Source: Schmidtea polychroa | Taxonomy: Eukaryota | DNA: 64,000 bases | Assembly (NCBI GenBank): GCA_044892525.1 | Contig: CM097885.1 | Location: 15,378,001-15,442,000 of the forward strand | Direction of reading: 5' to 3' | Part shown: positions 28,914 through 29,363 of the stretch, one piece after another | Position numbering within the stretch: position 1 is the first letter of the stretch | Layout: every line of letters begins with the position of its first letter | Position numbers and translations under genes: made by a program | The notes under the pieces: generated by a model | Told to the model about the DNA's origin: nothing | Seen by the model: only the letters and a program-made list of their open reading frames with translations | Database searches by the model: none

Positions 28914-29363
28914 ATGTTAGTAAATATTAATTACCGTGGACGGGTTTCATTAAAAGTTATACAAAATATGAATTTTCCTTATGGTAAACCTCAGCAAATA
29001 ATAGATAAAACTGATAATTATACAATTATATTCTTCAAGACAGGGAAATGTCGAATAATGGGTTGCAAAAAACCTATTGAAAGCATACATTATAATATTA
29101 AAGATGTTCATCTTCAATCTTGTACAATTACTATTGATATCAAACAACTAATTAATTTGCAATATTTGTCAAAGAAAACAAAATGTGTATATGAACCAGA
29201 AATATTCCCGGGTTTGCGTCTCATATCTTATAACCCCTTGTGTGTAAACTTGTTTTCTAGTGGAAAAATAGTTGTACTTGGTTTAAAAACTCTAAATTAT
29301 AATTGGATTGTCAACAAAATTATAAATGATGTAAATGATTTGATTGGTTCACAAAAACTATAA
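28914..29363 (+). CDS. TATA-binding-protein-like protein
   Basis: Two TBP repeats: IFFKTGKCRIMGCK and YEPEIFPGL...LFSSGKIVVLGLK. Confidence 0.88.
   Translation: MLVNINYRGRVSLKVIQNMNFPYGKPQQIIDKTDNYTIIFFKTGKCRIMGCKKPIESIHYNIKDVHLQSCTITIDIKQLINLQYLSKKTKCVYEPEIFPGLRLISYNPLCVNLFSSGKIVVLGLKTLNYNWIVNKIINDVNDLIGSQKL

Follow-up and report, generated by a model that had tools for sequence, protein, structure and literature searches.

A truncated TBP-fold protein encoded by a Polinton clade of Schmidtea polychroa, and its possible association with a YATAAAC box

Results

The Polinton and its gene complement

The window, i.e. the whole 64,000-nucleotide stretch of Schmidtea polychroa DNA that was analysed, contains an outer Polinton interrupted by a nested fold-back element (Table 1). 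Polintons, or Mavericks, are defined by terminal inverted repeats with AG ends together with a 6-bp target-site duplication, and the element at 1138-31194 was found to possess terminal repeats and a 6-bp duplication as well as genes for a protein-primed type B DNA polymerase (pPolB), an rve integrase, an ATPase and a protease. Inverted-repeat pairs (1194-1848/30489-31143 and 2155-2591/29796-30232) were recognised, and the final ORF ahead of the right terminal repeat encodes the protein of principal interest, hereafter termed mini-TBP. Its location inside the terminal repeats, as claimed in an initial annotation made from the sequence, was confirmed, the element being bordered by ATCGTT on both sides. 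The nested element is a separate insertion, and two sibling copies of the Polinton do not contain it.

Table 1. Features of the outer Polinton and its surroundings (window positions)
Feature	Position	Strand	Basis or remark
Left target-site duplication ATCGTT	1132..1137		6 bp
Outer Polinton	1138..31194		~16.4 kb minus nested insert; ends AGTAG../..CTACT; ATCGTT duplication
Left terminal inverted repeat, internally repetitive	1138..2591		Inverted-repeat pairs
TATAAAC box	2613..2619	+	Non-coding, 31 nt upstream of ATPase ATG
Packaging ATPase, A32-like	2644..3267	+	Pfam Pox_A32 E 1.2e-8
Conserved cassette gene, pX-like C-terminus, putative core protein	3203..3805	+	ORF
TATAAAC box	3253..3259	+	Within ATPase tail, upstream of next gene
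TATAAAC box	3713..3719	+	Upstream of integrase region of uninterrupted element
Nested 13.6-kb fold-back element	3812..17427		Own duplication ACAATG; AGTAGT ends; pPolB gene per arm
rve integrase with chromodomain	17387..18511	+	Pfam rve E 1.2e-11
CATAAAC box	18440..18446	+	Within integrase tail
Putative minor capsid protein, 352 aa	18460..19518	+	Gene order and size; no family match
TATAAAC box	19410..19416	+	101 nt upstream of 129-aa gene
Conserved basic 129-aa cassette gene, putative virion core protein	19511..19900	+	ORF
TATAAAC box	19843..19849	+	41 nt upstream of putative major capsid gene
Putative major capsid protein, 409 aa	19884..21113	+	Gene order and size only
Adenain-like cysteine protease frame	21169..21528	+	Stop to stop; Pfam Peptidase_C5 E 9.3e-5, over cut-off
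pPolB, 1369 aa	21674..25783	-	ORF; identity to nested polymerase gene
Bcl-2-like protein, 144 aa	27774..28208	-	Pfam Bcl-2 E 1.1e-7
Predicted SSB, T7 gp2.5/Enc34 type, 136 aa	28364..28774	+	Structure model pLDDT 89.3; neighbour upstream of mini-TBP
mini-TBP gene	28914..29363	+	149 aa, intronless; Pfam TBP, AlphaFold2 model, Foldseek, family of 240 proteins
Right terminal inverted repeat	29796..31194		Inverted-repeat pairs
Right target-site duplication ATCGTT	31195..31200		6 bp

Several of these assignments were indirect. The capsid labels are putative, being assigned from the gene order and sizes usual in such elements, and neither the 409-residue nor the 352-residue ORF gave a match in Pfam, PHROGs or PDB sequences. 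The pX-like designation stems from an Adeno_PX match in a homologue of the gene concerned (E 0.017) that was weak and below cut-off. The pPolB gene shares 73% DNA identity over 219 nt with the nested polymerase gene, which itself matches Pfam DNA_pol_B_2 at E 3.5e-31. For the predicted SSB, a VIA structure search conducted with the model placed the Enc34 SSB, DUF2815, T7 gp2.5 and ASFV CP312R as the top four (Z 6.9-7.3, middling by the tool's scale; next 5.0), all of them SSBs of this kind or kin to them, the lead from the Atlas being DUF2738, and an SSB of this gp2.5/Enc34 type adjoins mini-TBP in 20/62 metagenome loci.

Two frames may begin unconventionally. The first residues of the integrase frame derive from the end of the nested element; a 75-residue ORF (17431-17658) overlaps its start, and a copy belonging to another subfamily reads that N-terminus and the integrase in one frame, such that frameshifting or splicing may join the two. 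With the adenain-like frame, no ATG was present upstream of the matched domain, which is directly preceded by ATAAAC; translation may start at a codon other than ATG, or splicing may be involved. The Bcl-2-like gene recurs in other subfamilies at 23-51% identity, and adintoviruses likewise possess a Bcl2 gene (PMC8502044). Downstream of the Polinton, pieces of a host PIH1-domain gene were detected by Pfam at 60036-62828.

mini-TBP as a TBP-fold protein

The initial annotation had regarded the ORF as a compact, intronless TBP of divergent two-repeat fold, and profile and structure comparisons with TBP families upheld the assignment. Pfam TBP (PF00352) matched mini-TBP at E 1.9e-14 with 53.7 bits against a curated cut-off of 22.9, and an AlphaFold2 model prepared from a 40-sequence alignment (mean pLDDT 94.3) contained strands in both lobes of a two-lobed saddle with an unbroken beta sheet. 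When that model was compared with the PDB by Foldseek, 44 matches were recorded at E<=0.001, those listed being without exception TBP chains with query-based TM-scores of 0.69-0.75. mini-TBP is accordingly a true TBP-fold protein.

The two repeats are nevertheless unequal. DSSP analysis of the model indicated that the N-terminal repeat is truncated, with a short helix H1 and no helix H2, there being no helix between the strands at residues 45-51 and 63-75; by alignment, the H2 region amounts to 17 residues compared with 32 in TBP, and the first intercalating Phe is also missing from the N-lobe. Both of the motifs originally cited for the fold, YEPEIFPGL (residues 93-101) and FSSGKIVVLG (114-123), are present in the ORF translation, but they lie together within the C-terminal repeat.

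Family, distribution, phylogeny and selection

When scored against two profiles, 240/261 database proteins were assigned to the mini-TBP family. In the genome of origin, where several subfamilies exist, all of the best 150 scored of 4054 candidate matches passed, and 142 of these 150, a set biased towards intact copies, were free of internal stops. A mini-TBP gene was located in 10/10 stretches of the same genome chosen by their ATPase, albeit in pieces in three. Relatives were also found at 62 metagenome loci, 23 of which included a Polinton core gene; among the 22 loci of at least 3 kb the corresponding number was 16, the remaining loci being mostly short contigs. One such locus, L109, is a divergent, complete-looking Polinton encoding a 179-residue family member that retains the length of H2. 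No relatives were detected among IMG/VR viral contigs with seven query sequences.

A tree of 75 hand-chosen rows, unrooted and constructed without named giant-virus or mirusvirus TBPs, was split by a 100/100 branch into 51 family rows and 24 cellular or full-length rows, with two host TBP paralogues falling among the latter. The comparison with host TBP envisaged in the initial annotation thus placed the family apart from the host paralogues. Recent capture of a host TBP was rejected on the basis of this tree and of the family-wide residue pattern described below, and is considered unlikely.

Pairwise comparison of eight copies from the own genome gave dN/dS values of 0.10-0.32 in 26/28 pairs, dS being saturated in the other two, and the gene is under purifying selection. 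These values and the stop-free matches together dismiss a decayed pseudogene, the outcome that the initial annotation had named as counting against it. As to its further remark, that TBP is foreign to the canonical Polinton gene set, TBP is absent from the adintovirus genes in the descriptions consulted; within this clade, and in all ten of the related elements sampled, mini-TBP is a stable gene of the Polinton rather than a one-off extra.

Residue anatomy of the mini-TBP family

Residue numbers are those of yeast TBP, mapped through the plant TBP P0137 plus 41. The tally covered 240 members assigned by profile score rather than by motifs, with the F99 column (P26) labelled by hand. Three of the four intercalating phenylalanines were retained almost without exception (F116 233/234, F190 240/240, F207 237/237), as was the equivalent of P191, whereas an aromatic residue occurred in the F99 region, where the register is ambiguous by one residue, in just 3/226 members; the complement of four that characterises a canonical TBP is therefore incomplete, and the loss may weaken DNA bending. 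The TFIIB-contact glutamates, by way of contrast, were preserved, E188 in 237/240 members and E186 as Glu or Asp in 219/240 (203 E and 16 D), the C-lobe positions C.L3.2 and C.L3.4 corresponding to E94 and E96 of the window protein. These are the two glutamates that contact TFIIB in cellular TBP (PMC7221094), although the stirrup that they form may be kept for folding instead. Inspection of the intercalating and TFIIB-contact residues, to which the initial annotation had drawn attention, thus yielded three phenylalanines and both glutamates in place, and F99 lost.

The hydrophobic TATA-reading face of canonical TBP was not found, its place being taken by polar residues. Near-fixed substitutions were recorded at V122R (232/235), T124M (234/238) and L205N (236/237); N159 was replaced by Ser or Thr in 238/239 members and V161 by Thr or Ser in 237/239, while I194R occurred in 157/240, V203 became Cys, Ser or His in 223/238, and V71N was present in most. 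The window protein has N, R, M, S, T and N at V71, V122, T124, N159, V161 and L205, respectively. Positions I194, V203 and L205 are the three altered in the changed-specificity mutant TBPm3, and within TBP the N-lobe is the part in contact with the box's 3' half (PMC1636458).

Helix H2 with its basic regulator patch, which in TBP binds TFIIA, TAF1, Brf and Mot1/BTAF1 (PMC7221094), is missing from the short members, the loss being graded across the family. The combination of a rebuilt DNA face, retained glutamates and a lost H2 would suit a protein built for a different sequence, for host TFIIB and for the avoidance of regulators.

No TFIIB-like gene was detected by Pfam among the 10 outer-element ORFs, nor in 41 chosen ORFs of related, mostly partial loci, a search in which the host control L121 did match TFIIB. 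The host TFIIB itself is intron-split, with named relatives from nematodes and arthropods, and the PRTFKE motif is present both in its exon and in a close full-length TFIIB.

The YATAAAC box

The best 6-mer obtained de novo, ATAAAC, was present in 38/40 cassette upstream regions compared with 9/70 others, metagenome loci only being considered. Extended to YATAAAC, and with near-identical ORFs removed from the metagenomic relatives, the motif stood ahead of 42/49 genes for packaging, for the integrase or for putative virion proteins, compared with 5/60 other genes (Fisher p 3e-17). The choice of C at position 7 was marked, the 40 cassette regions containing YATAAAC in 36, YATAAAT in 7, YATAAAA in 1 and YATAAAG in 2. 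Across the 62 loci the sense strand was favoured (135 vs 43 sites), and in the window Polinton TATAAAC occurs in neither terminal repeat.

In 8/11 metagenome ATPase genes the box lay 32-37 nt upstream of the ATG, and 31-41 nt upstream in 13/13 stretches of the own genome, where it was also located 41-42 nt upstream of the putative major capsid gene in all 12 stretches with that gene; for internal genes the distance ranged from 25 to 113 nt. By way of contrast, the own genome had no box upstream of any of 13 mini-TBP genes, and in the window none precedes the mini-TBP, SSB, Bcl-2-like or pPolB genes. Among metagenome loci a box accompanied 2/39 mini-TBP genes, 19/39 of which had a match to canonical TATA no more than 70 nt away (a raw count, not matched for AT content), and it was found 20-37 nt upstream of 3/16 SSB genes. 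In L109, the most divergent element, a box stood upstream of both the integrase and the putative major capsid gene, the ATPase having none.

Some of the boxes overlap coding sequence, and there the dipeptide Ile-Asn was written ATA-AAC in 21/31 cassette gene tails compared with 5/52 gene bodies; the same spelling occurred in 6/13 tails of non-cassette genes. Judged from this usage, the box is kept by selection at the DNA level. In the putative capsid gene the box-bearing metagenomic relatives show 30-60% identity, and they presumably come from other hosts.

For comparison, a TBP-less Polinton of the same host was available as a complete 14.8-kb copy with no TBP match inside; a box preceded 1/11 of its ORFs and 0/10 of those in a second copy, the two representing a single Polinton family.

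Discussion

A possible role for mini-TBP

On the evidence of residues and box, mini-TBP is probably an altered-specificity TBP that binds YATAAAC(A) and supplies the cassette genes with host TFIIB and Pol II, thereby acting as a switch from early to late expression. The gene itself would be transcribed via host TBP, after which the polar DNA face of its product would read the box. The C at position 7, which is unusual, would be matched in the N-lobe by V71N, V122R, T124M and the loss of F99, and the T or C at position 1 in the C-lobe by I194R, V203C and L205N. The conserved stirrup glutamates would then dock host TFIIB, loss of H2 would release the protein from Mot1/BTAF1, TAF1, TFIIA and Brf1, and in this way Pol II would reach the packaging and integrase genes as well as those for putative virion proteins. 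That mini-TBP should read a box of its own is suggested because the TBPm3 positions are changed, because the box co-occurs with the gene, and because the TBP-less family is almost free of it. Of the two effects on host transcription initiation contemplated in the initial annotation, redirection fits the co-occurring box, whereas inhibition found no positive evidence.

The principal alternative, that host TBP or a paralogue reads the box and mini-TBP is an unregulated booster or general substitute with no private specificity, is considered unlikely. It draws on the fact that TATAAACA differs from the canonical TATA box at one position and on PDB 1qn3, one of the Foldseek matches, in which wild-type TBP was crystallised on a C(-25) TATA variant, so that host TBP or a paralogue could read the box; the host has, moreover, several divergent TBP and TFIIB paralogues. 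Against it stand the polar substitutions, near-invariant across 240 proteins at positions that read bases, which would be unexpected of a generic substitute, the strong preference for C at position 7 (YATAAAC 36/40) and the presence of the box in metagenomic relatives of presumably different hosts. Less probable again is a decoy or dominant-negative protein that sequesters host TFIIB or sits on the TATA boxes of the host, thereby lowering its transcription, with the YATAAAC box an unconnected feature. The retained TFIIB-contact Glu, the missing regulator surfaces and the host-modulating Bcl-2-like gene on the same element would be in keeping with such a protein, but a decoy has no need of an invariantly rebuilt DNA face, the box goes with the mini-TBP gene and is nearly missing from the TBP-less family checked, and global inhibition is not easily reconciled with a single host that harbours at least 150 copies, most of them intact.

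Two further proposals are regarded as highly improbable, the second marginally more so. A role in bending or binding DNA for replication, integration or packaging alongside the SSB, and not in transcription, would accommodate the adjoining SSB-fold gene (20/62 metagenome loci) and the lost intercalating Phe; it is countered by the E-x-E stirrup, which is near-invariant and known for contacting TFIIB (PMC7221094), and by a box that is absent from both terminal repeats of this element and lies on the sense strand upstream of genes. A repressor that binds the box and silences integrated copies would be in keeping with the co-occurrence of gene and box, and a complex lacking the TFIIA-binding helix could be non-productive; against this, the TFIIB contacts are kept and the herpesvirus analogue is an activator (PMC12529657).

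Were the altered-specificity reading correct, it would extend, more tentatively, to a widespread Polinton clade with a one-protein orthogonal switch, a TBP of 150 residues that dispenses with the regulator helix, reads YATAAAC and plugs into host TFIIB; we put this broader proposal at somewhat less than an even prospect. No smaller late-transcription system would then be known from a eukaryotic DNA virus, and the switch would be the point at which animal Polintons control expression of their virion genes. How integrated animal Polintons govern packaging and capsid genes is a question that the literature found does not answer. With one defined factor and a box of seven bases, the idea lends itself to experiment. 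The family also amounts to a natural experiment on TBP, with hundreds of sequences, changes at the same three positions as TBPm3 and graded loss of H2, and could provide a minimal orthogonal Pol II initiation factor.

Relation to known systems

mini-TBP shares its saddle fold with cellular TBP (PF00352; yeast 1ytb, human 1cdw, archaeal 1ais), and retains the equivalents of F116, F190, F207, P191, E186 and E188. It differs in its length of 149 residues, the lack of H2 and F99, the polar DNA face and its position across the 100/100 branch.

Among viral proteins, a parallel is offered by ORF24 of the beta- and gammaherpesviruses, the homologues of which are BcRF1 and UL87. ORF24, a viral protein, resembles mini-TBP in its TBP fold and in a DNA face that is polar and rich in Asn, and it acts with host Pol II on late genes with a variant TATA box, TATTWAA (PMC12529657), a role proposed here for mini-TBP on its own box. 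A variant TATA-like box before late genes is also a feature of the present Polintons, 'late' being deduced from gene identity. ORF24, however, retains all four Phe and is without the TFIIB glutamates, contacts Pol II by an extra domain of its own and requires five further viral factors (PMC12529657), whereas mini-TBP is a bare core with the glutamates kept and no partner gene found among the element's ORFs; neither an extra Pol II-binding domain nor a co-encoded activator gene was recognised there.

The TBPs of large dsDNA viruses likewise exhibit a TBP fold with the L5.1 Phe conserved and the N-lobe regulator signatures lost, but in them C.L3.2 is ~40% conserved and most of the viruses encode their own TFIIB (PMC7221094); in the mini-TBP family conservation of the glutamates is 85-99%, and the ORFs searched included no TFIIB gene. 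Structure matches of mini-TBP in BFVD were just 10-17% identical.

With Polintons/Mavericks (adintoviruses) the present element shares terminal repeats, the 6-bp duplication, pPolB, rve integrase, ATPase and adenain-like protease, and it differs in its TBP, gp2.5-type SSB and shared promoter box, none of which features among adintovirus genes in the descriptions consulted. A 'TBP' gene is labelled in the legend to Fig. 5 of Starrett et al. 2021 (PMC8502044) on MELD viruses with adintovirus-like PolB, linear dsDNA elements of middle size that are related to Polintons; it is a map label in non-animal datasets, and the comparison with mini-TBP is one of labels. Within the accessible text of that article there is no family, residue or promoter analysis of this 'TBP', and the text of one of its supplements contains neither TBP nor TATA. 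The openly accessible literature searched on Polinton TBP gave no account of the mini-TBP family or of the YATAAAC box.

Nested, related and host loci

The nested element at 3812-17427 contains no integrase or capsid gene. Elsewhere in the genome (G000), mini-TBP genes occur as inverted pairs 10-15 kb apart (C1:213379561/213389009, C2:81216233/81228264, C2:12268591/12278929 and C1:241941572/241956800), which suggests recurrent fold-back derivatives. The second, TBP-less Polinton family (L157+L161 4864-19684; L160+L128) has near-identical ATPase copies (145/145 scored), and was twice located inside or beside TBP-carrying elements.

Accessory genes of related Polintons (L059:225-719, L094:1710-2168, L109:6804-7889, L109:8282-8872) comprised a ubiquitin-conjugating E2, a RING finger and KilA-N, together with a recurrent family at 16 loci, which gave no Pfam match and was exonuclease-like by eye. 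The host genome contains several TBP paralogues, some of them intronless, together with arrays of intronless, divergent TFIIB paralogues of ~301 residues (L113-L122; C3:38-39 Mb, C1:23.8-24.2 Mb); these are possible partners or competitors of mini-TBP.

In contigs of sequencing runs guessed to be RNA, the mini-TBP ORF was present in full in X1, in part in X2 and absent from X3, a pattern that speaks neither for nor against expression. One contig of run X3 ends, at position 28817, in a poly(A) run; an AATAAA lies ~15 nt before it, downstream of the SSB gene, which offers a single weak hint of a transcript end.
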